Both the position numbers and the translations under genes were made by a program. From PVC group bacterium (GTDB taxonomy: Bacteria; Omnitrophota; Gorgyraeia; B26-G9): a stretch of DNA of 64,000 nt. Positions within the stretch are counted from its first letter, which is position 1; every line of letters starts with the position of its first letter. The stretch lies in assembly GCA_024231215.1 (NCBI GenBank), contig JAAEQR010000195.1:226246-290245 (forward strand), read 5' to 3'. This document shows, one piece after another, positions 45,866-63,316 of this stretch. The notes beneath the pieces are model-generated. The model had not been told where the DNA came from. It did not search any database and worked only from the letters and a program-made list of their open reading frames with translations.

Positions 45866-45972
45866 AATCGGAGCGCAGAAATTATTGAATTGAATGACAA
45901 TATTTAATAAATGCGCGATGATTATCCGCCGATGCTTTGTGGCGGATAGTACAGAATCATTTGGAGAGAATC

Positions 45973-46386
45973 ATGATGTCAAAATTAGTCCGGTTCGGAG
46001 TTTCATTAGAGCAGGAATTGTTGACGAAATTCGATCGTCTTATCAAAGCAAGGAATTATACCAACCGTTCAGAAGCAATCCGTGATTTAATCCGTGAAGA
46101 ATTAGTGGAAAGAGAGTGGCAGACATCGGGTGAGATTGCCGGCGCAATTACTATCGTGTATGATCATCACTGCCGGGATCTAGGAAATAAACTTACGGAT
46201 ATCCAGCATGACTTTCTCAATATAATAATTTCTACGCAACACTTACATCTTGATCATCACAATTGTTTAGAGATATTAGCGATAAAAGGTAGTGCTAAAA
46301 AGGCACAGAAATTAGCGAACATTTTACAGTCGGTCAAGGGAGTAAAGCATGCGACCCTGAGCATGACCGGAACAGGAAAGATATAA
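45973..46386 (+). CDS. nikR: nickel-responsive regulator NikR
   Basis: N-terminal ribbon-helix-helix (RFGVSLEQELLTKFDRLI) and a C-terminal nickel-binding ACT-like domain with conserved His/Cys. An RBS, GGAGAG, precedes the ATG at 45973. Confidence 0.85.
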   Translation: MMSKLVRFGVSLEQELLTKFDRLIKARNYTNRSEAIRDLIREELVEREWQTSGEIAGAITIVYDHHCRDLGNKLTDIQHDFLNIIISTQHLHLDHHNCLEILAIKGSAKKAQKLANILQSVKGVKHATLSMTGTGKI

Positions 46387-46389
46387 ATT

Positions 46390-47355: not shown

Positions 47356-47358
47356 AGA

Positions 47359-47973
47359 ATGAAGAAGTTTTCTCAAAAGACAATTTCCCGTTCATTCTTA
47401 TATATCAGAACATTAGAGCAGCTGATCAGAGCTGGAGAGACACTTGTTTCTTCTAAAAAGCTAGCGGATATTACTGGGCTTACTGATGTACAGATTCGGA
47501 AAGATATCTCTAATTTTGGAAAAGTCGGCCGGCCGAGGATTGGTTATAAGATTACGGAACTAAAGAAGATATTGGAAGATTTTGTACTGCAGCATATAGT
47601 ACATGTATCTTTGTTTGGCGTAGGAAATCTTGGTTCGGCAATTTTGAAATATCCTGGATTTCATCAGGAGAAAGTAGAGATTGTCGCAGCTTTTGAAAAA
47701 GATAAACGAAAGATTGGTAAAAAAATTAACGGGGTGAGTATTTATAGTGTTGAAGATGCTCCCCGTGTTGTTTCGAAAATGCATACAGAAATCGGGATTA
47801 TTGCTGTTCCCGAAGAATATGCGCAGCAGGTAGCGGATATTATTGTTGCTTGTGGCTTGCATGGAATTATAAATTTTTCACCGGTATCAATTAATGTACC
47901 TAAAGATGTTTCGGTTAAAAATATTGATCTGGCAATAGAGTTTCTTTCGCTTTACTGTGAAATGCAACTTTAA
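47359..47973 (+). CDS. rex: redox-sensing transcriptional repressor Rex
   Basis: Winged-helix N-domain plus a Rossmann GxGxxG (LFGVGNLGSA), with typical Rex length and pattern. Confidence 0.85.
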   Translation: MKKFSQKTISRSFLYIRTLEQLIRAGETLVSSKKLADITGLTDVQIRKDISNFGKVGRPRIGYKITELKKILEDFVLQHIVHVSLFGVGNLGSAILKYPGFHQEKVEIVAAFEKDKRKIGKKINGVSIYSVEDAPRVVSKMHTEIGIIAVPEEYAQQVADIIVACGLHGIINFSPVSINVPKDVSVKNIDLAIEFLSLYCEMQL

Positions 47974-47975
47974 AT

Positions 47976-47994
47976 AAGTTATAAATTATAACTT
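47976..47994. promoter_or_regulatory. perfect palindrome AAGTTATAA-A-TTATAACTT between rex and hypA
   Basis: A 19-nt inverted repeat. It shares the 13-mer TTATAACTTACAAC with the hypC upstream region. Confidence 0.35.
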
Positions 47995-48030
47995 ACAACT
48001 CATGAAAGTAATCCTGGAGGTAGCTACAAA

Positions 48031-48402
48031 ATGCATGAGATGTCAATTGCTTCCGCACTGATGGATCAGATAATGGAGACAGCCAAACTTAATAATCTGG
48101 TAAAGGTTGAAGAGGTTGAAATTCAGGCTGGGTTATTGAAGCAGGTGGTGCCGGATGTTATGCAGGCGGCTTTTGAAGCGGTGATTAGCGGGACAATTGT
48201 CGAAGGAGCGCGGCTTAAAATAATTGAGGTTAAGGCAGAAGCTCGTTGTCTGAGCTGTGGGCAGGTGTTTGAGCCTAAGGTGGATAATTTTTTATGTTCT
48301 GTGTGTAATAAGGCAGATGTGGAAATTATTAAAGGTAATGAGATTATTCTTAAATCATTAACTGGTAAAAACCTGGAAGAGGAAGATAAAAATGAAAGTT
48401 AA
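48031..48402 (+). CDS. hypA: hydrogenase nickel incorporation protein HypA
   Basis: MHEMSIA N-terminus, and a zinc site CLSCG ... CSVCN. Confidence 0.85.
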   Translation: MHEMSIASALMDQIMETAKLNNLVKVEEVEIQAGLLKQVVPDVMQAAFEAVISGTIVEGARLKIIEVKAEARCLSCGQVFEPKVDNFLCSVCNKADVEIIKGNEIILKSLTGKNLEEEDKNES

Positions 48403-49075
48403 TGTAATAAAAAACGTATTACAAGCCAATGATATAATTGCGGCAAAGAACAGGAAAGTATTTAAAGAAGCCGGATTGTTGGGAATAAATATAATTAGTT
48501 CGCCGGGAAGTGGAAAAACTACGCTGCTTGAAAAAACAATACCCACGCTAATGCCAGAGCAAAAGTCGATTGTACTGGTGGGAGATCTGGAGACAACTCG
48601 CGATGCCGATAGGGTAGCGCCGTATGCCGAAGAAGTGGTGCAGATTAACACAGGGATGAGCTGTCACCTTTACGCGAATCAGATTGCTGAATCTTTAACC
48701 GAGCTTGAATTAAATAAAGCTGATTTTTTGTTTATTGAGAATGTTGGGAATATGGTTTGTCCGGGAGAGTTTGATTTAGGGGAGAATGTTAAAGTTATCT
48801 TGTTGAGTATTCCGGAAGGGGATGATAAGGTAGCTAAATATCCAACTATTTTCCGGGCGGCGGATATGGTTTTATTAACCAAGATTGACTTGTTGGGAGT
48901 GCTTAATTTTGATCTAGATCGGGTGATGGAGGATTTGCGCAAACTCAATGAGAATGTACCGGTAATTAAGATGTCTTCGTTAGCAGGTGAGGGTATGGAG
49001 GAGTGGCTTGGCTGGCTGAAAGAACAGAGGAATAAATCTATCGGTAATCAGGCAAAATTCATCACACCGGAGTGA
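48392..49075 (+). CDS. hypB: hydrogenase nickel incorporation GTPase HypB
   Basis: P-loop SSPGSGKTTLLE and the CH-motif region. It overlaps the hypA end. Confidence 0.85.
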   Translation: MKVNVIKNVLQANDIIAAKNRKVFKEAGLLGINIISSPGSGKTTLLEKTIPTLMPEQKSIVLVGDLETTRDADRVAPYAEEVVQINTGMSCHLYANQIAESLTELELNKADFLFIENVGNMVCPGEFDLGENVKVILLSIPEGDDKVAKYPTIFRAADMVLLTKIDLLGVLNFDLDRVMEDLRKLNENVPVIKMSSLAGEGMEEWLGWLKEQRNKSIGNQAKFITPE

Positions 49076-49109
49076 TTCTTTTCTTACTAGGGGGAAATAA
49101 AAAAAACAC

Positions 49110-49137
49110 TTGCAAACTTTAGAATTAGTGATATACT
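49110..49137 (+). promoter_or_regulatory. candidate promoter TTGCAA-16-TATACT for the hox operon
   Basis: The hexamers are read directly from the sequence. Confidence 0.4.
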
Positions 49138-49154
49138 TACTTTAATAAGGTTAA

Positions 49155-49172
49155 TTGTTAAAAATTTCACGA
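49155..49172 (+). promoter_or_regulatory. candidate Rex operator TTGTTAA-AAAT-TTCACGA
   Basis: It matches the Rex box consensus TTGT[GT]AA-N4-TT[CA]ACAA in 16 of 18 positions. It lies between the candidate promoter and the hoxF start, and rex is encoded 1.2 kb upstream. Confidence 0.45.
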
Positions 49173-49200
49173 TTAAATCTAACGAAAAAGGGTAGAGCTG

Positions 49201-51012
49201 ATGGATAATAAGTTAGAACAGGCAGTAAAGCAGATTTGTGACGAGTGTGGAAATGACCGTACGAGAATAATGGACATTGTTATTGCTTTGCAAAAAAGCC
49301 AGGGTTGTGTGAGCAGCCAAGCCATGGACTTGATTGCCAAGCAGGTAAATGCACATCGTGTAGAAGTAGAAGGGGTTGTTTCTTTTTACGCTTTCCTTTC
49401 CAAAGATCCTAAAGGAAAAGTAGTGATCCGGGTTTGTACGGATGTTGTTGATCGGATGAAAGGTGTAAATGAAGTCGGACAGGCATTTCAAGCAGAACTT
49501 GGTATTGGATTAGGCGAGACTACAGAGGATGGCAATATTACGCTTGAACATACCCCTTGTATTGGGATGTGTGACCAGGCTCCGGCGGCTTTGATTAATG
49601 ATGAAGTATTTACTAATTTATCTGAGGACAAGGCAAAAGCTATTGTCCAGGCATTGAAAAAAGATGCTGATCCTAAAAAAATATCCATAGAGCTAGGTGA
49701 TGGAAATAATGCGAATGAACTAGTTAAATCGGAAGTTAAAAATAATATTTGCAAAAAAGGCGAAATTATTTTTGCTGATAATGAGTCGGGAGCTGGCTTG
49801 AAAAAAGCGTTAGAATTAGCGCCGGCTGATGTTATTAAGGAAATTAAAGAGTCTAAATTAAGAGGCCGCGGTGGTGCAGGATTTCCCACAGGACTTAAGT
49901 GGGATTTTGCTAGCAAGGCTGAAGGCGATCAGAAATATGTGCTTTGTAATGCAGATGAAGGAGAGCCGGGAACTTTTAAAGACAGAGTGCTTCTTACTGA
50001 GCGTTATGATTTGTTATTTGAAGGTATGACTATTACCGGTTATGCGATCGGTGCTAATGCCGGGGTGATTTATTTGCGCGGTGAATATGCTTATTTACGT
50101 GCTTTTCTGGAAAATAAGCTTGTAGAACGTAGAGATAAGAATTTATTAGGTAAAAATGTGCTTGGCAAGGATGGGTTTGATTTTGATATCCGAATCCAGA
50201 TGGGAGCCGGGGCATATGTATGCGGAGAAGAAACAGCGCTTATTAGTTCCTGCGAAGGCATGCGCGGTGATCCGAAAAATCGTCCTCCGTTTCCAGCTCA
50301 AAAAGGATATCTTGGTTGTCCGACTGTAGTGAATAACGTTGAAACATTATCCATTGTGACCAGAATAATGGAAAAGGGTGCAGCCTGGTTTACGGGAATT
50401 GGAACTGAGGCTAGTGCTGGAACAAAAATTTTAAGTATTTCCGGTGATTGTGAAGCTCCCGGAGTATATGAATTTCCGATTGGTATAAAAATAGAAGACT
50501 TGCTTAAAGAAGTAAAAGCAGAAAATGCGCAGGCAGTTTTGATTGGTGGTCCTGCCGGACAGATAATTAGTGCTACGGAATTTAATAGATATATTTGTTT
50601 TGATGATTTGGCTACGGGTGGTGCGATTGTTATCTTTGGTGCGCAGCGTAATATATTGGAAATCGTTAATGAATATATGGATTTCTTTATTGAAGAGAAC
50701 TGTGGTTATTGCACTCCTTGTCGTGTAGGCAATGTTTTGTTGAAGCAGCGTTTGGAAAAGATAATTTCCGGAAAAGGGGAAAAGGCAGATCTTGATTATT
50801 TGCAGGACTTGGGAGATAGTGTGATTTTGACCAGCCGTTGCGGCTTGGGGCAGACTTCTCCAAATCCGATTCTTACCACCTTGAAGAATTTCCGGTCTTT
50901 ATATGAAGGCTTGATTAAAGTAGAAAAAGATATTATGGAACCGACATTTGATGTTAAGGCTGCACTTAATGATGCAGAAACTGTTGCAGAACGACAATCA
51001 GTAATATATTGA
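49201..51012 (+). CDS. hoxF: NAD(P)-linked diaphorase subunit of a bidirectional [NiFe] hydrogenase (HoxF) with a fused N-terminal NuoE/HoxE-like 2Fe-2S domain
   Basis: An N-terminal thioredoxin-like 2Fe-2S domain (C...C...CxxxC), then a NuoF-like NADH/FMN-binding region (GRGGAGFPTG) and a 4Fe-4S site. Confidence 0.85.
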   Translation: MDNKLEQAVKQICDECGNDRTRIMDIVIALQKSQGCVSSQAMDLIAKQVNAHRVEVEGVVSFYAFLSKDPKGKVVIRVCTDVVDRMKGVNEVGQAFQAELGIGLGETTEDGNITLEHTPCIGMCDQAPAALINDEVFTNLSEDKAKAIVQALKKDADPKKISIELGDGNNANELVKSEVKNNICKKGEIIFADNESGAGLKKALELAPADVIKEIKESKLRGRGGAGFPTGLKWDFASKAEGDQKYVLCNADEGEPGTFKDRVLLTERYDLLFEGMTITGYAIGANAGVIYLRGEYAYLRAFLENKLVERRDKNLLGKNVLGKDGFDFDIRIQMGAGAYVCGEETALISSCEGMRGDPKNRPPFPAQKGYLGCPTVVNNVETLSIVTRIMEKGAAWFTGIGTEASAGTKILSISGDCEAPGVYEFPIGIKIEDLLKEVKAENAQAVLIGGPAGQIISATEFNRYICFDDLATGGAIVIFGAQRNILEIVNEYMDFFIEENCGYCTPCRVGNVLLKQRLEKIISGKGEKADLDYLQDLGDSVILTSRCGLGQTSPNPILTTLKNFRSLYEGLIKVEKDIMEPTFDVKAALNDAETVAERQSVIY

Positions 51013-51038
51013 GGATTCCGGGCATAAAGATAGTGTGG

Positions 51039-51085
51039 TTTACCACACAGTGCCGCGGATATAATTCGCCCTGAAACTTCAGGGC
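51039..51085 (+). promoter_or_regulatory. internal promoter-like TTTACC-16-ATAATT plus a perfect 5'UTR hairpin GCCCTGAA-AC-TTCAGGGC before hoxU
   Basis: Read from the sequence. The block CCGCGGATATAATTC resembles CCGCGGACATAATTC upstream of glgP (42956-42971). Confidence 0.3.
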
Positions 51086-51095
51086 TCATTAAAGG

Positions 51096-51818
51096 ATGAT
51101 TATGGAAAAAACAGTAAAGTTTACGATTGATGGAGTAGAAATAACGGCCAAGGCGGGGCAGACGATTATGCAGGCTGCCGATGAAGCAGGGATTTATATC
51201 CCTCGTTTATGCTACATGAATGAGCTAAAGCCACACGGAAGCTGTCGTGTATGTACAGTAATGGTAAACGGTAACCCTCAGGCTGCTTGTACTCAGCCGG
51301 TTGCCGAAGGTACAGTTGTAAAAAGTGAAACTGAAAAGATTCAGGCTAGTCGCCGGGATATCGTGGATATGCTTTTTGTGGAAGGAAATCATTTTTGCAT
51401 GGTTTGTGAAAAAAGCGGTAATTGCGAACTTCAGGCAATGGCGTATCGTTTGGGTATCTGCGCTCCAAAATATCCTTATCTTTTCCCGAAATTGGATGTC
51501 GATGGTTCTCATCCGGATATTTTTATTGACCGCAATCGTTGTATTTTATGCGGCCGCTGCGTGGAAGCGTCACAGGATATTGACGGTAAAGGCGTGTTCG
51601 AATTTGTCGGACGCGGGCAGGAGAAGAGAGTTGCGGTAAATGCCGAAGCAAAACTTGCAGATACGAATATGGAAGTAACAGATAAGGCAGCGGATGTTTG
51701 TCCGGTAGGTGCAATAATTAAAAAACGTGTAGGGTTCGCTGTTCCTGTAGGAGAGCGGTTATATGATAAGGAACCGATCGGTTCGGATATTGAGAGGAAA
51801 AAAAATGGGAAAACCTAA
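51096..51818 (+). CDS. hoxU: hydrogenase diaphorase Fe-S subunit HoxU (NuoG N-terminal-like)
   Basis: An N-terminal 2Fe-2S ferredoxin-like fold followed by several Cys clusters (CxxCxxxxxC, CILCGRC). Confidence 0.85.
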   Translation: MIMEKTVKFTIDGVEITAKAGQTIMQAADEAGIYIPRLCYMNELKPHGSCRVCTVMVNGNPQAACTQPVAEGTVVKSETEKIQASRRDIVDMLFVEGNHFCMVCEKSGNCELQAMAYRLGICAPKYPYLFPKLDVDGSHPDIFIDRNRCILCGRCVEASQDIDGKGVFEFVGRGQEKRVAVNAEAKLADTNMEVTDKAADVCPVGAIIKKRVGFAVPVGERLYDKEPIGSDIERKKNGKT

Positions 51819-52350
51819 AATTGCTACTGCTTCATTAGCAGGATGTTTCGGATGCCATATGTCTATACTTGATATTGATGATCGTATTCTGAAACTTGTG
51901 GAATTAGTGGATTTTGATAAATCTCCGGTAAATGATATTAAAAAGTTTACGGGAAGATGTTTAGTCGGTTTGATTGAAGGCGGCTGTGCAAATGAAGAAA
52001 ACGTGCATGTGCTTAAGTATTTTCGTGAAAATTGCGATATACTTATTTCTGTTGGGGACTGTGCGATTAATGGTGGTGTGCCGGCAATGCGTAACGGTAT
52101 TCCGCTAAAGGAATGTTTGGAAGAAGCTTATATCAACGGTCCGACGGTGTATAATCCAAGTAAACAGATTCCTAATGATAAAGAAATTCCGCTATGTCTT
52201 GATAAGGTTTATCCTTGTCATCATGTAGTGAAAATAGATTATTATCTGCCGGGTTGTCCACCTTCTGCAGATACTATATGGGAAGCATTGGTGGCATTGT
52301 TAAACGGCAAGCCGCTTGATCTGCCGTATGAATTAATTAAATATGATTAA
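51805..52350 (+). CDS. hoxY: [NiFe] hydrogenase small subunit HoxY
   Basis: MGKPKIATASLAGCFGCHMS proximal-cluster motif and a C-terminal LPGCPP. It overlaps the hoxU end by 14 nt. Confidence 0.85.
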   Translation: MGKPKIATASLAGCFGCHMSILDIDDRILKLVELVDFDKSPVNDIKKFTGRCLVGLIEGGCANEENVHVLKYFRENCDILISVGDCAINGGVPAMRNGIPLKECLEEAYINGPTVYNPSKQIPNDKEIPLCLDKVYPCHHVVKIDYYLPGCPPSADTIWEALVALLNGKPLDLPYELIKYD

Positions 52351-52361
52351 GGAGTAATATC

Positions 52362-53798
52362 GTGAGTGATGCTAAATTAAAAAGAGTGATTATAGAGCCG
52401 GTAACCCGTGTCGAAGGTCATGGGAAAGTATCTTTGTTGCTTGATGAGCAAAATCAGGTTAAACAAGCTAGACTGCATATTGTAGAATTTCGCGGGTTTG
52501 AGCGTTTTGTTCAGGGTAGGCCTTTCTGGGAAGTTCCGGTATTAGTACAGAGATTATGTGGTATATGTCCGGTAAGCCATCACTTGGCTGCGGCAAAGGC
52601 TATGGATCGTATTGTTGGCGGTGAAAACCTTACCCCGACTGCGGAAAAGATGCGTCGTTTAATGCATTATGGACAGACTTTTCAGTCTCATGTTTTGCAT
52701 TTCTTTCATTTGGTTTCTCCTGATCTGTTATTTGGTTTTGATGCGGATCCGGCAATCCGGAATGTAATTGGCGTAGCTCAGAAATTCCCGGAACTTGCGG
52801 TACAGGGCGTTATGATGCGTAAGTATGGGCAGGAAATCATCAAAGCTACAGCTGGAAAGAAAATCCACGGAACAGGAGCAATCCCGGGTGGTATAAATAA
52901 GAATCTTTCTATTGCTGAACGTGATGAATTATTGAAAGATATTGACCAGATGGTTGAATGGGCACGCAGTGCATTGAAGATAGCTAAAGATTATACTACA
53001 GAAAACTTGGAGAAGATTGCTCCGTTTGGTTCTTTTGATTCAAATCATCTAAGTATTGTGCGTAAAGATGGATGTCTGGATCTTTATGATGGAAACTTAA
53101 GAGCGATTGATGCAGAAGGTAATAAGATAATTGATCAGGTTGATCCTCAGGATTATATGGAGCATATTGCTGAGGAAGTAAAGCCTTGGTCTTATATGAA
53201 GTTCCCGTTCATTAAATCAGTAGGTCCGGAAAATGGATGGTGTCGTGTAGGTCCTTTGGCCAGAATCAATACTTGTGATTTTATTGATACTCCGGAAGCG
53301 GAAAAAGAACGTCAGGAATTTATGGCGCTAACCAAAGGTAAACCGAATAATATTACCATGGCTTATCACTGGACACGTATGATTGAAACTTTGCATTCAA
53401 TTGAAAAAATAAAAGAATTGCTGCATGATAAGGATCTTCAGGGTACAGATTTGGTTGTTAAGGGTGAGCGTAGAGAAGAGACTGTAGCGATTATCGAAGC
53501 ACCTAGAGGCACATTGTATCACCATTATAAAGTTGATAAGAATGACCAGGTTACAATGGCTAACTTGATCGTATCTACTACCAGTAATAACGAACCAATG
53601 AATCGTGCGGTACAAAAAGTTGCGCAGGATCATTTAAGCGGTGTGGAAATTACCGAAGGGTTATTAAATCATATCGAAGTAGCAATTCGTGCGTATGATC
53701 CATGCTTATCTTGTGCTACACACGCTATGGGCAAAATGCCTTTAATTATCAGTCTTTTTGATCATAAGGGCAATCTTGTTGATCAGAGAGCAAAATAA
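52362..53798 (+). CDS. hoxH: [NiFe] hydrogenase large subunit HoxH
   Basis: N-terminal RxCGxCxxxH (RLCGICPVSH) and a C-terminal DPCLSCATH nickel-binding motif, followed by a cleavable C-terminal extension. GTG start after an AAGGAG RBS. Confidence 0.9.
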   Translation: MSDAKLKRVIIEPVTRVEGHGKVSLLLDEQNQVKQARLHIVEFRGFERFVQGRPFWEVPVLVQRLCGICPVSHHLAAAKAMDRIVGGENLTPTAEKMRRLMHYGQTFQSHVLHFFHLVSPDLLFGFDADPAIRNVIGVAQKFPELAVQGVMMRKYGQEIIKATAGKKIHGTGAIPGGINKNLSIAERDELLKDIDQMVEWARSALKIAKDYTTENLEKIAPFGSFDSNHLSIVRKDGCLDLYDGNLRAIDAEGNKIIDQVDPQDYMEHIAEEVKPWSYMKFPFIKSVGPENGWCRVGPLARINTCDFIDTPEAEKERQEFMALTKGKPNNITMAYHWTRMIETLHSIEKIKELLHDKDLQGTDLVVKGERREETVAIIEAPRGTLYHHYKVDKNDQVTMANLIVSTTSNNEPMNRAVQKVAQDHLSGVEITEGLLNHIEVAIRAYDPCLSCATHAMGKMPLIISLFDHKGNLVDQRAK

Positions 53799-54262
53799 TG
53801 ACTGCAAAAGTAGAAAAGGTTCTGCTGATTGGATACGGGAACCCGGGAAGACTTGATGATGGGTTGGGCCCGGCTTTGGCGGAAGTAATAGAGGCGGAAA
53901 ATATTCCAGGTGTAACCGTGGACGCGAATTATCAACTTTCAGTTGAAGACGCGGCTGCGGTTGCTGAGCATGATGTAGTGATTTTTGCTGACGCATCGGT
54001 GAATGCTACAGAACCATTTTCTTTCACACAAATCCATCCTAAATCCAATACTTTAAGTTTCAGTAGTCATAGTGTTGAACCAGAGGCAGTGATTGCTCTG
54101 GCGCAGGAATTATTTAAAGCAGATACAGTTGGCTATGCCTTGGGAATTCGCGGATATGAATTTAATGAGTTTGGTCAAAAAATCTCTACTCAGGCTAAAG
54201 AAAATCTAGAAAAAGCAATAGAGTTTATAGTTCCTGCCTTACGTAAAAAAATATTCCAATAA
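53798..54262 (+). CDS. hoxW: hydrogenase maturation endopeptidase (HoxW/HycI family)
   Basis: A ~150 aa protein with LLIGYGNPGRLDDGLG. It follows directly after hoxH. Confidence 0.8.
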   Translation: MTAKVEKVLLIGYGNPGRLDDGLGPALAEVIEAENIPGVTVDANYQLSVEDAAAVAEHDVVIFADASVNATEPFSFTQIHPKSNTLSFSSHSVEPEAVIALAQELFKADTVGYALGIRGYEFNEFGQKISTQAKENLEKAIEFIVPALRKKIFQ

Positions 54263-54303
54263 TTCATTGACTAAAACCTTTGTTTTTGTGTATTGTAATT
54301 AAT

Positions 54304-56565
54304 ATGACCGAGACTAATATACTTAGATTACGTGTTTCTATCTGCGGAGCTGTTCAGGGAGTGGGATTTCGTCCGTTTATTTATCGTTTAGCTCATGAGT
54401 TAAACCTTGCCGGATGGGTTTTGAATTCTTCCGGAGGTGTTCTTATTGAGGTTGAAGGAGAACGCAAACAACTGAATAAATTCCTACTGCGGATTGAAAA
54501 GGATAAACCGCAAAATGCTTTTATTCAGAGCTTAGAGCCTGCATTTCTCGATCAAGTTGGATATAAAAAATTTGAAATACGTGAAAGTATTATCGGAGAG
54601 AAAAGCGTTTTAATCCTTCCGGATATAGCTACATGTCCGGAATGTATTAAGGAAATTTTTGATCCGCAAAATAGACGTTATTTATATCCGTTTACTAACT
54701 GTACTCACTGTGGTCCCCGCTATAGTATTATCGAAGCTCTTCCTTATGACCGGCCGAATACGACAATGAAAAATTTTACTATGTGTCAAAACTGTGAGGC
54801 TGAATACAATAATCCTCAGGATCGGCGTTTTCACGCTCAGCCTAATGCCTGCTCGGAATGCGGCCCTTATCTTCGTCTATGGGATGCTCAGGGTCAAGTT
54901 ACGGCAACGCGTCAGCAAGCTTTGGAAAAGACAGTTCAGGCAATTAAAGCGGGCCAGATTGTCGCGGTAAAAGGCTTGGGAGGATTCCATCTTATGGTGG
55001 ATGCTTTAGATCAGGATGCAATAAGCCGGCTGCGTTTACGCAAGCATCGGGAATCAAAACCGTTAGCTCTAATGTATCCTTCCTTGGTGGATATTTATAA
55101 TGATTGTGAATTAACTCCGTTACAAGAGAGGCTTTTAAACTCAGCAGAAGCACCGATTGTTATGGTGCGTAGGAAAGAAGAATGCAGTTTGCCGAATAAT
55201 ATTGCTCCGCATAATCCGTATCTCGGAGTAATGGTACCCTATACGCCGTTGCATCATTTGTTATTACAACAGTTAGGATCTCCGGTGGTGGCAACCAGTG
55301 CAAATCTTAGTAATGAGACAATTTGTATTGATGAGCAGGAAGCTTTGCGTTGTTTAGCTGGTATTGCGGATATCTTTTTAATACATAATCGCCCGATTAC
55401 CAGGCATGCTGATGATTCTATTGTCCGCATATTTTCCGGACGGGAAATAGTAATGCGTCGGGCTCGTGGATACGCACCATTGCCGATCACATTAACAGCT
55501 CCGGTAAAAAATACAGTGCTTGCCGTAGGCGGACATTTAAAAAACACGATTGCTATTGGCAGGGGTAGAAATGTATTTGTCAGTCCGCATATCGGAGATC
55601 TGGATGCCGCCAGGACATTTGATACATTTGTTAGAACTATTGATGATTTTAAAGATTTATATGAATTTGATTTTAAAAATGCAGTTTGTGATTTACATCC
55701 GGCTTATCGCTCTACTCAGTTTGTTAAAAGTTTAGATTTTCCAGTATTACAGGTACAGCATCATTATGCACATATCCTTTCTTGTATGGCTGAAAATGAG
55801 CTTGCGGCGCCTGTGCTTGGGGTTTCATGGGATGGGACCGGTTATGGCCCGGATAAAACAGTTTGGGGTGGAGAGTTTCTTAAAATAAATGATAAGGGGT
55901 TTGAGCGTTTTATGCATTTACGTGAGTTCCATCTTCCGGGAGGAACTTCGGCTGTACGTGAACCGCGACGAATAGCGGCGAGGATTTTGTATGAGTTGTT
56001 TGGGGATGAATTATTTGACATGCATAAGTTGCTGTGTTTACAAGCTTTTTCAGAAGCTGAACTTAAAAATCTAAGAGTTGTGTTGGAAAAGAAAATAAAC
56101 AGTCCGGTTACCTCCAGTATGGGGCGTCTTTTTGACGCAGTATCTTCTCTTTTAGGAATAAGGAATATTATTCAATTTGAGGGTCAGGCAGCAATGGAGC
56201 TTGAGTTTGCGATCAAAGATGCTAGTACAGAGGATATATTTTCTATTGATATCAAAGATGGGATTATCGACGGACATCTGGTTTTAAAAGAAATATTAGG
56301 GGACATAGAGAAGAGTGTAAATACTAAAATAATTGCAGCAAAGTTTCATAATACTCTGGCTCAGATAATCGTGGAAGTTGCTAAGGAAGCAAAAATAGAA
56401 AAGGTTGTTTTAAGCGGCGGCTGTTTTCAAAATAAATATTTAACTGAACATGCAATTGATAGGCTTAGGAAAGCTGGTTTTAAGCCGTATTGGCATCAGC
56501 GTGTGCCGCCTAATGATGGAGGAATTTCTTTGGGACAGATAATATCAGCGCAGAGGGATGGATAA
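54304..56565 (+). CDS. hypF: carbamoyltransferase HypF
   Basis: Acylphosphatase domain, two zinc-finger CxxC pairs, a YrdC-like and a Kae1-like domain. The start was chosen at MTETNIL. Confidence 0.9.
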   Translation: MTETNILRLRVSICGAVQGVGFRPFIYRLAHELNLAGWVLNSSGGVLIEVEGERKQLNKFLLRIEKDKPQNAFIQSLEPAFLDQVGYKKFEIRESIIGEKSVLILPDIATCPECIKEIFDPQNRRYLYPFTNCTHCGPRYSIIEALPYDRPNTTMKNFTMCQNCEAEYNNPQDRRFHAQPNACSECGPYLRLWDAQGQVTATRQQALEKTVQAIKAGQIVAVKGLGGFHLMVDALDQDAISRLRLRKHRESKPLALMYPSLVDIYNDCELTPLQERLLNSAEAPIVMVRRKEECSLPNNIAPHNPYLGVMVPYTPLHHLLLQQLGSPVVATSANLSNETICIDEQEALRCLAGIADIFLIHNRPITRHADDSIVRIFSGREIVMRRARGYAPLPITLTAPVKNTVLAVGGHLKNTIAIGRGRNVFVSPHIGDLDAARTFDTFVRTIDDFKDLYEFDFKNAVCDLHPAYRSTQFVKSLDFPVLQVQHHYAHILSCMAENELAAPVLGVSWDGTGYGPDKTVWGGEFLKINDKGFERFMHLREFHLPGGTSAVREPRRIAARILYELFGDELFDMHKLLCLQAFSEAELKNLRVVLEKKINSPVTSSMGRLFDAVSSLLGIRNIIQFEGQAAMELEFAIKDASTEDIFSIDIKDGIIDGHLVLKEILGDIEKSVNTKIIAAKFHNTLAQIIVEVAKEAKIEKVVLSGGCFQNKYLTEHAIDRLRKAGFKPYWHQRVPPNDGGISLGQIISAQRDG

Positions 56566-56720
56566 TTGTGATAGAATGCAAAATAGCTATAAGTGGTAAG
56601 GAGGAAGAGAAAACAGAAAAAATAAAAAAGGTATATAGTTTGTTAGTTTGTGTTTTATTGGGAGAGTATTAATAGTTGTGCAACATAAGGGGATTATTAT
56701 GAGTTATAGGTTTATTGTTT

Positions 56721-56760
56721 TATACTTATAACTTACAACGTATAACTTATAACTGGAGAT
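56721..56760. promoter_or_regulatory. direct repeats of TATAACTTA upstream of hypC (candidate operator)
   Basis: CTTATAACTTACAACGTATAACTTATAACT; it shares TTATAACTTACAAC with the hypA upstream region. Confidence 0.35.
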
Positions 56761-56764
56761 TAGT

Positions 56765-57007
56765 ATGTGTTTAGCAGTGCCGGGAAAAATTACTAGTATA
56801 ATTGAAAACGATGATCCTTTGCAGAAGACTGGAAAGGTTAGTTTTAGCGGAGTAGTGCAGGAAATAAATCTGGCTTATGTCCCGGAGGCAAAGGTGGGGG
56901 ATTATGTAATTGTGCATGTGGGGTTTGCTTTAAATATAGTGGACGAAGAGGAAGCTCAAAAGATTTTTGAAGCATTAAAGCAGGCAACAGGGGAAGAATT
57001 TTTATGA
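56765..57007 (+). CDS. hypC: hydrogenase assembly chaperone HypC
   Basis: [10 protein letters not shown]-terminus, 80 aa. Confidence 0.85.
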
Positions 57008-58101
57008 AATATGTAGATGAATATCGTAGGGCAGAAGATGTTAAAAAGGTATCACAGGCAATTGCCAAGATTACTACCAAACCGTGGACAATAATGGAAA
57101 TTTGCGGTGGGCAGACGCATGCTATCGTGAAATTTGGGTTGGATGAGCTGTTGCCGGATAATATAACTTTAGTGCATGGCCCGGGATGTCCGGTATGTGT
57201 AACACCGTTAGAGGCGATTGACCGTGCAGTTATGATTGCTTCCCGGGAGGATGTTATTTTTTGTTCTTTTGGAGATATGGTGCGTGTGCCGGGTTCGGAG
57301 AAAGATCTTTTAACTGTAAAATCTCAGGGTGGAGATTTAAGAATAGTTTATTCTCCTTTGGATGCAGTTGAAATTGCCAGACAAAATCCTAATAAGAAAG
57401 TAGTATTTTTTGCGATCGGGTTTGAAACTACAGCTCCGGCTAATGCGATGGCTGTGTATCAGGCAAAACTAAAAGGTATTAATAATTTTTCCGTGTTAGT
57501 TTCTCATGTGCTTGTACCTCCGGCAATGGAGATTATCTTATCTTCGCCGGCAAATAAAGTGCAGGGATTTTTAGCGGCCGGACATGTATGTACGGTAATG
57601 GGATATACTCAATATGAAGCTATTGCAGAAAAATTTAAAGCGCCGATTGTTGTTACCGGGTTTGAACCTCTGGATATTTTAGAAGGAATATATATGTGTG
57701 TGCAGCAGCTTGAAGCTGGTAAGCATGAAGTTGTTAATGAATATTCGCGTGTAGTAAAAAGAGAAGGTAATTTGCCGGCACAGGATGTTATTAAAAAGGT
57801 ATTTAAAATAGTGAACCAGAAGTGGAGAGGTATCGGAGAAATTCCAGATAGCGGGTTGGCTTTGGCTGATGAATACAGTAGTTTTGATGCAGATAAAGTT
57901 TTTAATTTAGAACATATAAATGTAGAAGAGCCCGCAGAATGTATTAGCGGATTGGTTTTGCAGGGAGTTAAAAAACCGGATGAGTGTTCTGAATTTGGCA
58001 AAAAATGTTCTCCGGAACATCCGCTTGGGGCGCCCATGGTTTCTACTGAAGGTGCTTGCGCGGCATATTATAGGTATCGTAGTCATGAAATAGTAGGCTA
58101 A
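57004..58101 (+). CDS. hypD: hydrogenase formation protein HypD
   Basis: [13 protein letters not shown] and a C-terminal CxxC pattern. Confidence 0.9.
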
Positions 58102-58126
58102 GTTTTGATTGCAAAGGTAATTAGGT

Positions 58127-58292
58127 GTTAAAACATGTATTTTTCTCACTCTAGCTTGATTTTACCCTTCGATTTCGCTCAGGGTCGCAACGAATGGCTA
58201 AAAATATCCTCCCGGCCTGACGGGCTCGTCAATTTTTTTAACGCCATATCTTATGCTAAAATCAAGGGTCGTTTAAAAACACATGTTTTAAC
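58127..58292. repeat. structured ~166-nt element bounded by 12-bp inverted repeats (GTTAAAACATGT / ACATGTTTTAAC) between hypD and hypE
   Basis: Perfect terminal inverted repeats, nested inner inverted repeats CTTGATTTTA / TAAAATCAAG, and an internal GC hairpin. It splits the usually contiguous hypDE pair. Confidence 0.35.
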
Positions 58293-58335
58293 AAAGTTAT
58301 TATAATATTGTTGTTCAGTGAGAGGAAATTAAGAA

Positions 58336-59391
58336 ATGAATGATTTTGATGTAACAAATTTAACGTGTCCAATTCCGATATCCGATTATCCAAATGTGCT
58401 TTTAGCGCATGGATCCGGCGGGATTTTGATGAATCAGTTGATTGAAAAGATATTTTTAGCGGCATTTAAGAATCCGATCTTAGAACAAAAACATGATGCA
58501 TCGGTTTTAGAGCCGGGAAAAGGCAAGCTGGCAATGACCACTGACTCTTATGTCATTCATCCATTGTTTTTTCCGGGAGGAGATATTGGTTCTTTAGCAG
58601 TGCATGGGACGGTTAATGATTTAGCGATGTGTGGAGCAAAACCATTATATCTTTCTGCTGGATTTATCTTAGAAGAAGGGCTTCCTATGGATACTCTTTG
58701 GAAAGTAGTTGTATCTATGGCTCAGGCAGCTAAGAACGCAGGAGTGCAGATTGTTACCGGAGATACAAAGGTTGTAAATAAAGGTAAGGGCGATGGGATA
58801 TTTATAAATACCGCAGGTATTGGCGTAATTGAGCATGATTTAAGTATAGCTCCAGCTTCGATAAGAGAAGGCGATGCGATTATTCTAAGCGGTGATATTG
58901 CAAGACATGGTATGGCGGTTATGGCTGTACGTGAAGGGCTAGAGTTTGAAAGCATGATCACCAGTGATTCTGCGCCGGTAAACGCAATCGTAGAAAAACT
59001 TATTGCTTCCGATATAGATATACATTGTATGCGTGATCTTACACGGGGTGGTGTAGCTAGTGCTTTAGTTGAACTTGCTAAAAGTGCTAATGTCCATATT
59101 AATATTGAAGAAGAAAAAATTCCAGTGCATGAAGATGTGAGAGGGGCTTGTGAAATATTGGGATTAGATCCGATGTATGTAGCTAATGAAGGCAGGTTTG
59201 TTTGCTTTGTACCTGAGGGACAGGCTGATAAAGTGATTCAGATTATGCGGGAATACTCAGATGCAGAAGAAGTTGTTTGTATTGGCAAAGTCAGTTTGGA
59301 TAAAAAAGGACAGGTAACTCTTAAAACCAGCATTGGTACTACCCGCTATGTAGATATGCTTTCCGGAGAACAATTGCCGCGTATTTGTTAA
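58336..59391 (+). CDS. hypE: carbamoyl dehydratase HypE
   Basis: AIR synthase-related fold and a C-terminal PRIC motif. Confidence 0.9.
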
Positions 59392-59457: not shown

Positions 59458-60204
59458 TTATTTTGATTTCCCTTGATTTGCTACCGCGTTCATTGCTTTT
59501 GCGATTGCTTCCTGATCTCCCAGATAATAATGCTTTATTGGTTTTAGATCATCGTCAAGTTCGTATACCAGTGGGACTCCGGTAGGAATATTTAGTTTTA
59601 CGATTTCTTCTTCAGATATGTTGTCTAAGTACATTACTAGTGCACGCAAACTGTTACCATGTGCGGCAATAAGTACATTTTTCCCGGATTTGATAGCCGG
59701 TGCAATGGTTTCATGCCAATAGGGTAGAAAACGTTCTACAGTATCTTTAAGGCATTCGGTTAATGGAAGATCTTTTTCGTCTAAATCTTTGTATCTGGGA
59801 TCATTTCCCGGCCAGCGCGAATCGCTCTTTTCCAAAGCTTTAGGCGGAATATCATAGCTTCTTCTCCAGACCAAAACCTGCTCATCACCGTATTGGGTGG
59901 CTGTTTCTGCTTTGTTGAGTCCCTGTAATGCTCCATAATGTCTTTCGTTGAGTCTCCAGCATCTTTCTACCGGTATCCACATCAAATCCATACCGGATAG
60001 GGTCAGCCAAAGGGTTCTGATTGCTCGTTTTAAGACGGATGTAAAGGCAATGTCAAATGTGTAACCCTCTTGTTTTAAGACTGTTCCGGCATTTCCTGCT
60101 TCCTGCAGGCCTTTTTCTGAAAGATCTACATCAGTCCATCCGGTAAATTTATTTTCCTTATTCCAGACACTTTCTCCATGACGCAATAATACTACTTTTT
60201 TCAT
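59458..60204 (-). CDS. gpmA: 2,3-bisphosphoglycerate-dependent phosphoglycerate mutase
   Basis: [10 protein letters not shown] catalytic His motif over the full length. The RBS GGAGGA precedes it. Confidence 0.9.
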
Positions 60205-60511
60205 GTTTATCCTCCTTCGATGATTAAAATTAGCCAAGTTTTGTAACGAATCGTTTCCCTTATTATATCCAAAAACTTGAAATATGCAACCCCTAAAATC
60301 AACAAAAAAATATTGACTTTTATGGTTAGCTAAGTTATAATTTCATTCTCGTTTTTATATCGAAGATCATGGTTTTTTCAGGCTGTGAAAAAAATTTTTA
60401 TTTTTTTCTTGCAAAATCTTGAATTTTTGGTTTAATAGTAATATGCAAAATATTAGCCTGTATTTTAGGTTATAACCCATTGCTGGAAGAAGGGATATTT
60501 GAAATAAAGAA

Positions 60512-60880
60512 ATGAAGAAAAAAGGAAAAAAAATATTTGGTTATGAATTGGTGTTGGATTTGTTTGAATGTGACGCCGATGTGATCACTTCTAAGAAAAA
60601 GCTGAAGGAATATGTTGATACGCTGTGTAAGCTGATCAAGATGAAGAAGTATGGCAAGACACTTCTGCCGTATTTTGGGGAAAAAGAAGAATTTACAAAA
60701 GGATATTCCCTGGTTCAGCTGATTGAAACTAGTTCTATTACCGGGCATTTTTCCGATTACTGGAAGACCGCGTATATCAATATTTTTTCTTGCAGAGAAT
60801 ATGATCAGAACCTGGCAAAGAAATTCTCCAAAGAGTTTTTTGGGGCAAAGAGGGTAAAATCACGTTTCCTTGTCCGCTAA
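60512..60880 (+). CDS. pyruvoyl-dependent AdoMetDC-family decarboxylase proenzyme (S-adenosylmethionine decarboxylase-like; substrate uncertain)
   Basis: 122 aa, small class 1 AdoMetDC fold. The processing/pyruvoyl site ETSS-ITGHF corresponds to ESH..H.WPE of SpeD-type proenzymes. Confidence 0.8.
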   Translation: MKKKGKKIFGYELVLDLFECDADVITSKKKLKEYVDTLCKLIKMKKYGKTLLPYFGEKEEFTKGYSLVQLIETSSITGHFSDYWKTAYINIFSCREYDQNLAKKFSKEFFGAKRVKSRFLVR

Positions 60881-60913
60881 GAGCCAATTATTGCATATAG
60901 AGTAAATATAAAA

Positions 60914-60945
60914 CAGCAGGCACAAACCTGCTGTTTTTTTCGTTA
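60914..60945 (+). terminator. rho-independent terminator or attenuator between the AdoMetDC-like gene and nspC
   Basis: CAGCAGG-CACAAAC-CTGCTG followed by T7. Confidence 0.6.
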
Positions 60946-60957
60946 AGGGGCTGAACA

Positions 60958-62055
60958 ATGAAAATAGAAACACCTTATTATTTGATTGATGAGAAACAGC
61001 TGCTGAAAAACCTCAAGGTAATCAGGCGTATTCGGGAAAAGTCCGGGGCAAAGTCGGTATTAGCTCTGAAATGTTTTTCTACTTGGTGTGTTTTTGATCT
61101 TATGAAGCAGTATCTGGACGGAACAACTTCCAGTTCTTCTTATGAGGCACGCCTGGGATATGAAAAAATTGGTAAAGAAGTTCACGCCTATTCCGTTGCC
61201 TATTCCAAAGAAGATATAAAAGAAATCAGTAAATTCTCTGATAAAATTATTTTTAATTCTATATCTCAATTAAAGATGTTTTCTAAGCAGGTGTGTGATT
61301 GCCAGATTGGCTTAAGGCTGAATCCGCAGATCAGTTATTCTCATTTTGATCTGGCTGATCCATCACGTAAATATTCTCGTTTGGGAGTATCTGATAAAAA
61401 ATCTATACTTAGAGTACTGCCGAAGCTTAGTGGTGTAATGTTTCACTTTAATTGCGAAAACGCTGATTTTAAAAATTTCTCTAAAAATATTGATTATCTT
61501 AGCCGTACATATGGGAAGATACTAGGTTCTTTAAATTGGGTTAGCTTGGGTGGAGGGCTTTATTTTACCAAACAAGGATATCCAGTGGATAAGTTTTGTC
61601 GAAAGCTTAAAAGTTTCAGTGAGAGATTTAATGTGCAGGTGTATTTAGAACCTGGGGAAAGTGCGATCACCCAATCTTGCGAGCTTGTTACAAAAGTCCT
61701 GGATATTGTTCATAATAAAATGGATATTGCGATAGTTGATGCTTCTATTGAAGCGCATATGCTGGATTTATTGGTTTACCGGGAAAATGCTAAAATAAAA
61801 AGTACTGGCCGGTACAAGTATATGATTGCCGGGCGTTCTTGTTTAGCAGGGGATGTCTTTGGTACTTACAATTTTAAATCCCGGTTAAAAGTTGGCAGTA
61901 TTATTAGATTCCCGGATGCTGCCGGATATACGATGGTTAAAAAGAATTGGTTTAACGGGCTAAAAATGCCTGCTATAGTAGTGAAAAGATTAAACGGCAA
62001 AGTTGAAGTGGTTCGTGAATTTAAATATGATGATTTTGTAAACGCTTTATCATAG
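60958..62055 (+). CDS. nspC: carboxynorspermidine/carboxyspermidine decarboxylase
   Basis: PLP-dependent fold III decarboxylase with NspC family length and pattern. Confidence 0.85.
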   Translation: MKIETPYYLIDEKQLLKNLKVIRRIREKSGAKSVLALKCFSTWCVFDLMKQYLDGTTSSSSYEARLGYEKIGKEVHAYSVAYSKEDIKEISKFSDKIIFNSISQLKMFSKQVCDCQIGLRLNPQISYSHFDLADPSRKYSRLGVSDKKSILRVLPKLSGVMFHFNCENADFKNFSKNIDYLSRTYGKILGSLNWVSLGGGLYFTKQGYPVDKFCRKLKSFSERFNVQVYLEPGESAITQSCELVTKVLDIVHNKMDIAIVDASIEAHMLDLLVYRENAKIKSTGRYKYMIAGRSCLAGDVFGTYNFKSRLKVGSIIRFPDAAGYTMVKKNWFNGLKMPAIVVKRLNGKVEVVREFKYDDFVNALS

Positions 62056-62065
62056 AGGAGAAAAA

Positions 62066-63316
62066 ATGAAAAAAAATGTATTAATTGTCGGAGCCGGAGG
62101 AGTTGCTCATGTTGCCGCACATAAATGCGCGCAGAATAATAATGTGTTAGGCGATATTTGTATTGCTTCTCGAACCCAAAGTAAGTGTGATGCGATTATT
62201 GAAAGTATTAAGAAAAAGGATCATCTTAAAGCTAAAACCAAAAAGTTGTATTCACGACAGCTTAATGCATTGGATCTTGAAGCGGCAAAAAAGCTGATAC
62301 AGGAAACAAATTCTCACATAGTAATTAACCTTGCGCAATCATATGTGAATATGACTCTGCTTCAGGCTTGTATAGATGTAGGCGTAGCTTATATGGATAC
62401 GGCTATCCATGAAGACCCGGATAAGGTTTGCGAGGATCCGCCTTGGTATGCTAACTACGAATGGAAAAAATTAGATATTTGTAAGGAAAAAGGAATAACC
62501 GCTATTTTAGGGGCTGGTTTTGATCCGGGGGTAGTTAATGCGTATTGTGCCTTAGCCGTAAAACATCATTTTGATAAGATTGATACTATAGATATTATGG
62601 ATGTTAATGCTGGAAATCACGGAAAATATTTCGCAACCAATTTCGACCCGGAAATAAATTTCCGGGAATTTAAAAAAGTCTGGACTTGGATTGATCGTAA
62701 ATGGGTGATGGAAAAGGTTCATGCGATAAAGATGGTTTATGATTTCCCAGTGGTTGGAAAACAGCCGGTGTATTTAAACGGTCATGATGAACTTCATTCT
62801 TTATGGAAAAACATTGATGCGAATAGTATCCGGTTTTGGATGGGGTTTGGGGATCATTATATAAATGTGTTTTCGGTTTTGACCAATCTTGGTTTGACTT
62901 CAGAACAGCCGATTAAAACAGCTGAAGGAGTAGAGGTAGTTCCGTTAAAAGTTATAAAAGCGATTTTACCGGATCCTTTATCTCTTGCGCCTAATTATAC
63001 AGGTAAGACTTGTATCGGTAATTATGTTAAAGGCACCAAAGATGGTAAGCCGAAAGAGATTTTTATTTATAATACATGTGATCATGCAGAGTGTTATAAA
63101 GAGGTAGAGTCTCAGGCGATTTGCTATACTGCCGGAGTTCCTCCTGTGGCGGCGGCGATGCTTATCGCCCGGGGGGATTGGGATGTTAATCATATGGTTA
63201 ATGTTGAAGAGCTTGATCCTGATCCGTTCATTGCGATACTTGATAAAATTGGGTTGCCGACAATTGTTCATGAAAACCCAATAGTTCTTCCGGAAAGTGA
63301 AAGAGTTAAATCTTAG
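62066..63316 (+). CDS. carboxynorspermidine/carboxyspermidine dehydrogenase (saccharopine dehydrogenase-like)
   Basis: N-terminal Rossmann fold (VLIVGAGGVAHVAAH) and the C-terminal family pattern. Confidence 0.85.
   Translation: MKKNVLIVGAGGVAHVAAHKCAQNNNVLGDICIASRTQSKCDAIIESIKKKDHLKAKTKKLYSRQLNALDLEAAKKLIQETNSHIVINLAQSYVNMTLLQACIDVGVAYMDTAIHEDPDKVCEDPPWYANYEWKKLDICKEKGITAILGAGFDPGVVNAYCALAVKHHFDKIDTIDIMDVNAGNHGKYFATNFDPEINFREFKKVWTWIDRKWVMEKVHAIKMVYDFPVVGKQPVYLNGHDELHSLWKNIDANSIRFWMGFGDHYINVFSVLTNLGLTSEQPIKTAEGVEVVPLKVIKAILPDPLSLAPNYTGKTCIGNYVKGTKDGKPKEIFIYNTCDHAECYKEVESQAICYTAGVPPVAAAMLIARGDWDVNHMVNVEELDPDPFIAILDKIGLPTIVHENPIVLPESERVKS

Follow-up and report, generated by a model that had tools for sequence, protein, structure and literature searches.

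A predicted pyruvoyl-dependent L-ornithine decarboxylase of the SpeDC type encoded beside carboxyspermidine genes in an Omnitrophota genome

The window analyzed here is a 64-kb stretch of contig JAAEQR010000195.1 from an Omnitrophota bacterium. Near its end, three co-directional genes (60512-63316) encode a 122-residue protein homologous to S-adenosylmethionine decarboxylase (AdoMetDC, SpeD), a carboxyspermidine/carboxynorspermidine decarboxylase (CASDC, the product of nspC), and a carboxyspermidine dehydrogenase (CASDH). Judged by its sequence, the small protein is a pyruvoyl-dependent L-ornithine decarboxylase (ODC) of the SpeDC family and not a decarboxylase of S-adenosylmethionine (SAM), an assignment to which we give a probability of roughly 0.85. 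The three genes very probably specify a self-contained, SAM-independent route from L-ornithine to spermidine. SpeDC proteins are relatives of AdoMetDC that decarboxylate ornithine to putrescine and were described by Li, Liang, Phillips, and Michael (JBC 2023; PMC10407285). A first-pass annotation of this DNA had noted the three genes, an ET/SS processing site in the first product, and a hairpin after the first gene, and all are present as it stated. It had also doubted a genuine SAM decarboxylase, a doubt with which the diagnostic residues, the absence of a conserved Pro, and profile scores of 24 versus 95 bits agree. It proposed instead a neofunctionalized pyruvoyl enzyme that would decarboxylate arginine or ornithine and so furnish the diamine; this proposal is supported and can be narrowed to ornithine by the residues, the similarity to known ODCs, the SpeD and SpeE neighbors found in 26 related loci, and the signature of the partner CASDH.

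Probable assignment of the small protein to the SpeDC family

The 122-residue product matched the Pfam family PF02675 (AdoMet_dc) at 59.2 bits (E 5.9e-16, residues 13-122). Its AlphaFold2 (AF2) model (pLDDT 93.9, built from a 54-sequence alignment) resembled Thermotoga maritima SpeD (1TLU/1VR7) with TM scores of 0.82-0.85 in Foldseek; over the T. maritima and Aquifex aeolicus class 1b AdoMetDCs together, TM scores were 0.80-0.85 with an rmsd of 1.7-2.0 Å and 19-25% identity. The structural matches to the model included no solved member that decarboxylates ornithine. At the sequence level, the window protein barely picks up T. maritima SpeD (E 0.2). The two proteins share the fold and the spacing of Ser, His, and Cys (compared with 1TLU/1VR7/1TMI), but identity is only 24-25%. 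S63, H68, and C83 of the T. maritima enzyme are required for self-processing and catalysis (PMC10407285), and the processing criterion applied for SpeDC was the equivalent set of Ser, His(+5), and Cys(+20). Pairwise and MAFFT alignments placed S74, H79, and C94 of the window protein on these three residues with the same spacing. The predicted self-cleavage site between T73 and S74 corresponds to codons 60728-60733, H79 to 60746-60748, and C94 to 60791-60793, and the protein contains the motif VQLIETSSITGHF...AYINIFSC.

SpeDC ODCs are marked by a diagnostic set of four residues (Gln, Thr, Phe, and Tyr), and one Pro is fully conserved in bona fide AdoMetDCs (PMC10407285); the positions of the four residues, shown in Fig. 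8 of that study, were inferred here by alignment. The window protein reads VQLIET/SSITGHFSD...AYINIFSC, where the slash marks the predicted cleavage, giving Q69, T73, F80, and Y88, with D82 in the Pro position. The reference ODC domains were the C-terminal domains of SpeD-SpeDC fusion proteins from Ca. Omnitrophica OLB16 (KXK35843) and Desulfotignum phosphitoxidans (EMS77273), and Q69/T73/F80/Y88 match these two assayed domains column for column. In contrast, the true-AdoMetDC N-terminal domains of the fusions and T. maritima SpeD have V/E-S-H/W-P/A in those columns. Neither the E-S-H processing motif nor the Pro after the catalytic His was found in the window protein, which has T-S-S and D82; compared with T. 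maritima SpeD, E-S-H has become T-S-S and W-P has become S-D, and the predicted substrate differs. The pattern Q..ETS..GHF..Y..FSC is common to the window protein and the OLB16 and D. phosphitoxidans SpeDC domains, although each of the latter is joined to a genuine AdoMetDC domain and works in the SpeE route, and their +1 residue is Leu where the window protein has Ser. ODC activity of a SpeD-SpeDC fusion was lost in an S229A mutant (PMC10407285).

BLASTP aligned the window protein with the OLB16 ODC domain at 41% identity (E 1e-28) and with the D. phosphitoxidans ODC domain at 40% (E 1e-24). Against the AdoMetDCs, the same search gave no match to the two fusion domains and a spurious 16-residue match to T. 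maritima SpeD (E 0.055). With a profile built from the two ODC domains the protein scored 94.9 bits, and with one built from three assayed AdoMetDCs it scored 24.3 bits. Its score of 24.9 bits against TIGR03330 fell under the cutoff of 75.65, whereas a canonical Omnitrophota paralog reached 131.8. A profile search of 1.84 billion representatives returned 806 clusters at E ≤ 1e-10, a number consistent with an earlier estimate that SpeDC homologs number at least 1,000 (PMC10407285); among the best 150 of these clusters, Gln(-5) occurred in 141, Thr(-1) in 134, and all four diagnostic residues in 88. Every sequence-level membership test that was applied places the window protein in SpeDC. Among the 120 homologs listed, close relatives came almost exclusively from Candidatus Omnitrophota and were annotated as S-adenosylmethionine decarboxylase. 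A protein identical to that of the window is recorded in GenBank for a metagenome-assembled PVC group bacterium.

Loci encoding an ortholog were collected from GTDB species representatives (68 loci, 44-91% identity), and their neighboring open reading frames (ORFs) were clustered and annotated. The family has a mean column identity of 79%. Q, T, S, H, F, and C are invariant in 68/68 orthologs, and the equivalents of S74, H79, and C94 are likewise kept in all of them. The 25 canonical SpeD paralogs that reside with an ortholog read A..E-S-H..H-(T/S)-W-P..A..C, as T. maritima SpeD does. Compared by description, the SpeDC of Ca. Velamenicoccus archaeovorus LiM (WP_128700171) is a singleton small AdoMetDC homolog from the same phylum as the window protein. 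In published assays it acted on L-ornithine only (Km 0.073 mM, kcat 0.008 s-1) and did not complement an Escherichia coli ΔspeD mutant (PMC10407285). This protein was neither among the 68 loci, which were retrieved with window peptide words, nor among the 120 homologs listed.

GenBank annotates the gene product as a SAM decarboxylase; such an enzyme would serve a spermidine synthase or other aminopropyltransferase encoded elsewhere, and the adjacency of nspC and casdh would be coincidental. The above-threshold AdoMet_dc match, the database name, and the retained Ser, His, and Cys all accord with that annotation, and the enzyme of Sinorhizobium phage phiN3 provides the example of a divergent member that lies near the ODC clade and is still an AdoMetDC. 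We nevertheless regard this explanation as extremely improbable, given ET-S-S in place of E-S-H, the absence of the invariant Pro, and the low scores against both TIGR03330 and the AdoMetDC profile. The Omnitrophota homolog that was assayed failed to complement ΔspeD (PMC10407285), no speE was found among the 40 window ORFs scanned, and the linkage to CASDC and CASDH is kept in 28 loci. In 26 other loci the ortholog stands directly after a separate canonical SpeD and SpeE, where a second AdoMetDC would be redundant.

Several observations weigh against the assignment as an ODC. The two assayed ODC-domain sequences were typed from Fig. S5 after machine reading, and errors in them are possible. 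Complementation shows the phiN3 protein to be a bona fide AdoMetDC, but it groups with phage ODCs; here (L069 1429-1845, gp163) its scores were 39 bits with the ODC profile and 7 bits with the AdoMetDC profile. By this example, similarity to the ODC clade is not an infallible guide to activity. The enzyme of pelagiphage HTVC201P, near the SpeDC clade, is an arginine decarboxylase (ADC), and that of phage UCP01 takes both ornithine and arginine. For the partner enzyme, the CASDH score against NF043000 (carboxynorspermidine synthase) was 475.5 bits, under the model's cutoff of 800.

The phiN3 AdoMetDC has three of the four diagnostic residues (Q, F, and Y) but reads D-S-H, without Thr(-1) and with His(+1) kept. 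The most informative features are therefore the presence of Thr(-1) and the absence of His(+1), both of which apply to the window protein. TIGR03330 was rejected as a sole discriminator, since the phiN3 enzyme also falls under its cutoff (28.9 bits) despite being a bona fide AdoMetDC. This phage protein is a useful boundary case for sequence rules that part SpeD from SpeDC. Phage references were sought with tblastn, and the hits were limited to Sinorhizobium phages of the phiN3 type, Synechococcus phage S-H9-2, and one megaphage lacking annotation. Neither HTVC201P nor any of the assayed phage ODCs came up, even at E = 10.

Partner enzymes and the predicted route to spermidine

The nspC product belongs to the family modeled by NCBIfam TIGR01047 (429.2 bits, above the equivalog cutoff of 409.05), and the closest structure was PDB 3MT1, a putative carboxynorspermidine decarboxylase of Rhizobiales type (471 bits). 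Both saccharopine-dehydrogenase domains, N- and C-terminal, were matched in the casdh product by Pfam. Homologs of CASDH include CAPADH, the agmatine-using dehydrogenase of the carboxyaminopropylagmatine (CAPA) pathway. PDB scores proved uninformative for telling the two apart, as the best match scored 365 bits and the Streptococcus pneumoniae CAPADH (4RL6) scored 358, and signature residues were used instead. CAPADH is defined by N104, F113, and E228, and the published filter requires E228, or N104 plus F113; the corresponding residues are I113/W126/D241 in Agrobacterium tumefaciens CASDH and V112/E125/D240 in the carboxynorspermidine dehydrogenase (CANSDH) of Vibrio cholerae (PMC10599626). 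The window enzyme has I114/W127/D241, like A. tumefaciens CASDH and unlike either CAPADH or V. cholerae CANSDH, and with these residues it does not pass the CAPADH filter. The register was checked with the CASDH of Sinorhizobium meliloti pSymB, which is 66% identical and whose I113/W126/D241, numbered as in A. tumefaciens, align with the window residues. The Trp and Asp are kept in 26/26 Omnitrophota CASDHs, and position 114 is Ile or, in 8 of them, Val.

This putrescine-type signature argues against an arginine decarboxylase feeding agmatine into a CAPA route. If the small protein were such a pyruvoyl L-arginine decarboxylase (SpeDA), its agmatine would be converted to putrescine elsewhere or be used directly in the CAPA route, followed by a ureohydrolase. 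Reasons to consider SpeDA are that it arose several times from the AdoMetDC fold and is hard to tell from AdoMetDC by sequence (PMC10407285), that the HTVC201P and UCP01 enzymes accept arginine, that agmatine-using CASDH homologs are widespread (PMC10599626), and that 4RL6 scored near the best PDB match of the window CASDH. The comparison set of assayed sequences consisted of SpeD and SpeDC members. A SpeDA would be expected to lack the SpeDC signature and to be associated with agmatinase, AguA/B, or SpeY. We consider SpeDA quite unlikely, because the window protein has the complete, conserved set of SpeDC-diagnostic residues, because ornithine was the sole substrate of nearly every bacterial or archaeal protein with the SpeDC signature that has been assayed (PMC10407285), and because the window CASDH has I/W/D where CAPADH has N/F/E. 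Furthermore, neither an arginase-family ureohydrolase nor an agmatine deiminase was found among the 40 ORFs scanned in the window or among 20 representative neighbor ORFs scanned from related loci. The same 40 window ORFs included no spermidine synthase and no other ADC or ODC dependent on pyridoxal 5'-phosphate (PLP). The CAPA pathway of Synechocystis (CAPADH/CAPADC/APAUH; PMC10599626) uses a homologous dehydrogenase and decarboxylase and is aspartate semialdehyde-dependent as well, but its N104/F113/E228 signature is not in the window enzyme and its ureohydrolase has no counterpart among the window ORFs scanned.

A further alternative is that the pyruvoyl enzyme acts on a different amino acid, for example L-2,4-diaminobutyrate, giving 1,3-diaminopropane and hence norspermidine, or that it is a noncatalytic regulatory paralog; we hold this to be very improbable. 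Enzymes of the nspC/CANSDH type make norspermidine in Vibrio, the published assays covered Arg, Orn, and Lys plus SAM complementation only (PMC10407285), and the Val found at position 114 in 8/26 Omnitrophota CASDHs is the residue of V. cholerae CANSDH. However, position 127 is Trp in 26/26, as in the putrescine-using A. tumefaciens enzyme, whereas Vibrio CANSDH has Glu, and the same ortholog partners with SpeE in other genomes. A dead or regulatory paralog was rejected on the invariance of the catalytic residues and the high column identity of the family.

With L-ornithine as the most probable substrate, the route can be laid out as follows. By homology, the SpeDC proenzyme would self-cleave between T73 and S74 into a 73-residue β chain and a 49-residue α chain; the serine at the N terminus of this α chain would become the pyruvoyl cofactor, and H79 and C94 would be the processing and proton-transfer residues. 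The pyruvoyl enzyme is then predicted to decarboxylate L-ornithine to putrescine and not to act on SAM. From its family and signature residues, CASDH would condense putrescine with L-aspartate β-semialdehyde in a reductive, NADPH-dependent reaction to form carboxyspermidine, which the PLP-dependent CASDC would decarboxylate to spermidine.

Comparable gene arrangements are known from other lineages. The speDC-casdc-casdh locus of Ca. Electrothrix aarhusiensis (RWX43081), compared by description, has the same gene order and an assayed ODC but comes from another phylum (Desulfobulbales). The Rhizobiales CASDH/CASDC pairs (A. tumefaciens, S. meliloti pSymB, and 3MT1) share the order nspC > casdh and the I/W/D signature with the window; unlike the window, the S. 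meliloti locus (L070) has no speDC annotated beside the casdc/casdh pair. The 66% CASDH identity to Sinorhizobium pSymB (L070 2360-4742), the 471-bit match to 3MT1, and the common gene order suggest that the CASDC/CASDH pair moved horizontally between Alphaproteobacteria and Omnitrophota. Three other structures carry N..F(+9) and H-E in the positions of the agmatine-type CAPADH signature: 8DEB, deposited as a carboxyspermidine dehydrogenase, and 4INA and 8H4Z, both deposited as saccharopine dehydrogenases. Their real preferred substrates may be worth re-examining.

Exchange of aminopropyl modules beside speDC

CASDC and CASDH adjoin the ortholog in 28/68 loci, in the order speDC > casdc > casdh (as in the window; relatives L001-L006 and L009) or casdc > casdh > speDC. 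Another 26 loci have a second AdoMet_dc gene (canonical speD) followed by speE and then by the speDC ortholog. The second AdoMet_dc copy in these loci scored 123.7 bits in Pfam and 131.8 bits against TIGR03330, above the cutoff, and the synthase gene matched both NCBIfam speE and PRK00811 above their cutoffs. Orthologs compared across the two kinds of locus share 50-84% identity, as against only ~25% with the co-resident canonical SpeD. Common flanks enclose several loci of both kinds: RnfC< MFS< [module] speDC> and then FtsW< PBP<, with or without DUF2344< rSAM< between. Because the same flanks surround both kinds of locus, the aminopropyl module has been exchanged in place and speDC retained. 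Beyond these arrangements, a Pacearchaeota homolog is followed by a deoxyhypusine-synthase-like gene, and some metagenomic proteins have a SpeDC-type domain fused to spermidine synthase in either order. CASDH, SpeE, and homospermidine enzymes all require putrescine. For a gene that remains in place as its partners vary, and that occurs together with a genuine SpeD, the best explanation is that it is the constant supplier of putrescine for interchangeable aminopropyl modules.

The SpeE-SpeDC fusions (P0129, P0137, P0147, P0157, P0168, and P0239) are 412-461 residues long and carry Q..ETS..H.. in both domain orders, although they are possibly merged gene calls. Other SpeDC-type fusions include a GNAT-SpeDC protein (P0211) and a SpeDC-CxxCxxCC protein (P0267).

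Two metagenome-assembled genomes (MAGs) among the closest relatives of the window each have two speDC copies: RS_8_62 (L001 and L035) and SRP191223_co1_41 (L003 and L041). In each, one copy is part of a speDC-casdc-casdh operon, and the other, which shares 70-75% identity with the window protein, lies between NifU-like and ArsR-family genes. The presence of two copies could reflect paralogy or mixed bins, and the genome from which the window comes may also hold a second copy.

One locus (L015, JAIWAR010000032.1) was binned as a Methanosarcinales archaeon but shows complete Omnitrophota synteny (RnfC< MFS< casdc> casdh> speDC> DUF2344<), with 76% identity, and is likely mis-binned. Ca. Velamenicoccus preys on Methanosaeta, which makes this binning interesting.

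The intergenic hairpin, flanking genes, and implications

Table 1. Features of the polyamine locus, in window coordinates
Feature	Position	Strand	Description	Basis
speDC	60512-60880	+	122 aa, class 1b AdoMetDC-fold proenzyme, predicted pyruvoyl-dependent L-ornithine decarboxylase	PF02675
nspC/casdc	60958-62055	+	365 aa, PLP-dependent carboxyspermidine/carboxynorspermidine decarboxylase	TIGR01047, PDB 3MT1
casdh	62066-63316	+	416 aa, carboxyspermidine dehydrogenase, putrescine type (I114, W127, H240-D241)	Sacchrp_dh domains, NF043000, signature
Intrinsic-terminator-like hairpin and T-run	60910-60940	+	in the speDC/nspC gap	terminator scan, folding, conservation
Sigma-70-like promoter candidate	60313-60341	+	TTGACT-17-TATAAT	consensus scan, 11/12 matches

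The gap of 77 nt between speDC and nspC contains a hairpin (60910-60937) with an 11-bp stem and a 6-nt loop, AAAACAGCAGG-CACAAA-CCTGCTGTTTT, followed in the terminator scan by a run of seven T residues (Table 1). This arrangement, a G+C-containing stem-loop and a U-run directly after a stop codon, is that of an intrinsic terminator. The gap folds with a ΔG of -21.5 kcal/mol (z = -3.3), and none of 200 shuffled sequences folded as well. The pattern ACAGCAG-N(4-12)-CTGCTGT occurs once in the window, compared with 0 expected occurrences. The arms AAACAGCAG and CTGCTGTTT are identical in the window and eight related loci (L001-L007 and L009), the only loci with this motif, with variable loop and flanks; in these nine loci they always lie just 3' of the speDC stop codon, and they occur nowhere else in the window. 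The hairpin is not a chance feature. An Rfam search of 60200-61000 gave a Thr_leader match over the hairpin at 21 bits, against a threshold of 55; this was taken as a resemblance to a terminator, not as a leader.

In most of the eight relatives the spacer between speDC and nspC is 109-520 nt long, and several such spacers contain a TGnTAAAAT-like -10 element past the hairpin, which suggests a separately promoted nspC-casdh unit in those genomes. In the window, the T-run lies only ~20 nt from the nspC start, and expression of nspC and casdh probably depends on read-through. Only 10 nt lie between nspC and casdh, and each is preceded by a Shine-Dalgarno-like sequence. The promoter candidate, identified by consensus match only, lies ~170 nt upstream of the speDC start. 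On the simplest and most probable reading, which is still speculative, the hairpin would act as a leaky intrinsic terminator, leaving speDC mRNA more abundant than nspC-casdh mRNA. Turnover in the SpeDC family is low, with kcat values of 0.008-0.06 s-1 (PMC10407285), and an excess of speDC transcript would be sensible because the enzymes are so slow. Since the arms are invariant and show no covariation, a sequence-specific regulatory role is also conceivable, and the hairpin might then be a polyamine- or ornithine-responsive attenuator, or the operator of a dimeric regulator, that controls how much of the slow ODC is made relative to CASDC and CASDH; we think this unlikely.

A common conserved 5' leader of speDC was considered and rejected. 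A block upstream of the gene (60395-60437, TTTTTATTTTTTTCTTGCAAAATCT.GAATTTTTG.TTTAATA) is common only to the window and one relative (L007, about 3580-3625). Other close relatives (L001-L005 and L009) have a different conserved leader, ACAAATTACTTTAACCCGGGGATTGCTGG...GCAGTCTAAAACTAGGTAAGGAAGACACTGGA, which in L001-L004 overlaps a 92-residue ORF that ends 14 nt before speDC.

The polyamine genes are preceded by a NiFe hydrogenase region (45937-59391) in which Pfam identified NikR, HypA, HypB, NuoF/NuoG-like proteins, and small and large subunits, and in which further ORFs resemble HypC, HypD, and HypE by position and sequence alone. A histidine-phosphatase-family gene (gpmA-like) occupies the minus strand at 59458-60237. 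Downstream, an ORF that begins at 63424 with MSGIFGVV and runs off the window resembles, from the appearance of its sequence, a glutamine amidotransferase (purF-like). At least two PLP-dependent enzymes are encoded in the window, a class-V aminotransferase (NifS/IscS-like, 35338-36531) and CASDC (60958-62055). Omnitrophota is a phylum reported to be without complete PLP biosynthesis (PMC10407285), yet the CAS-type locus still requires PLP; at loci of the SpeD/SpeE type, spermidine would be made without any PLP enzyme.

The interpretation of the small gene offered in the first-pass annotation is correct, yet it had already been described in 2023 (PMC10407285). That study reported that speDC clusters with casdh and casdc, with the gene order of the window in Ca. 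Electrothrix aarhusiensis; it also assayed a SpeDC from Omnitrophota and noted incomplete PLP biosynthesis across the phylum. The additions made here are that a mis-annotated gene is assigned to SpeDC, that its partner dehydrogenase has the putrescine-type signature, that modules have been swapped in place within Omnitrophota, and that the terminator-like hairpin is conserved. The underlying biology was established experimentally by Li et al. (2023), and the finding therefore opens no new question. The exchange of modules in place within one phylum amounts to a natural swap experiment showing SpeDC as the putrescine supplier, a modest addition to the literature. For this Omnitrophota lineage, the annotation as S-adenosylmethionine decarboxylase would lead metabolic reconstructions to infer a SAM-dependent route wrongly and to miss the source of putrescine.

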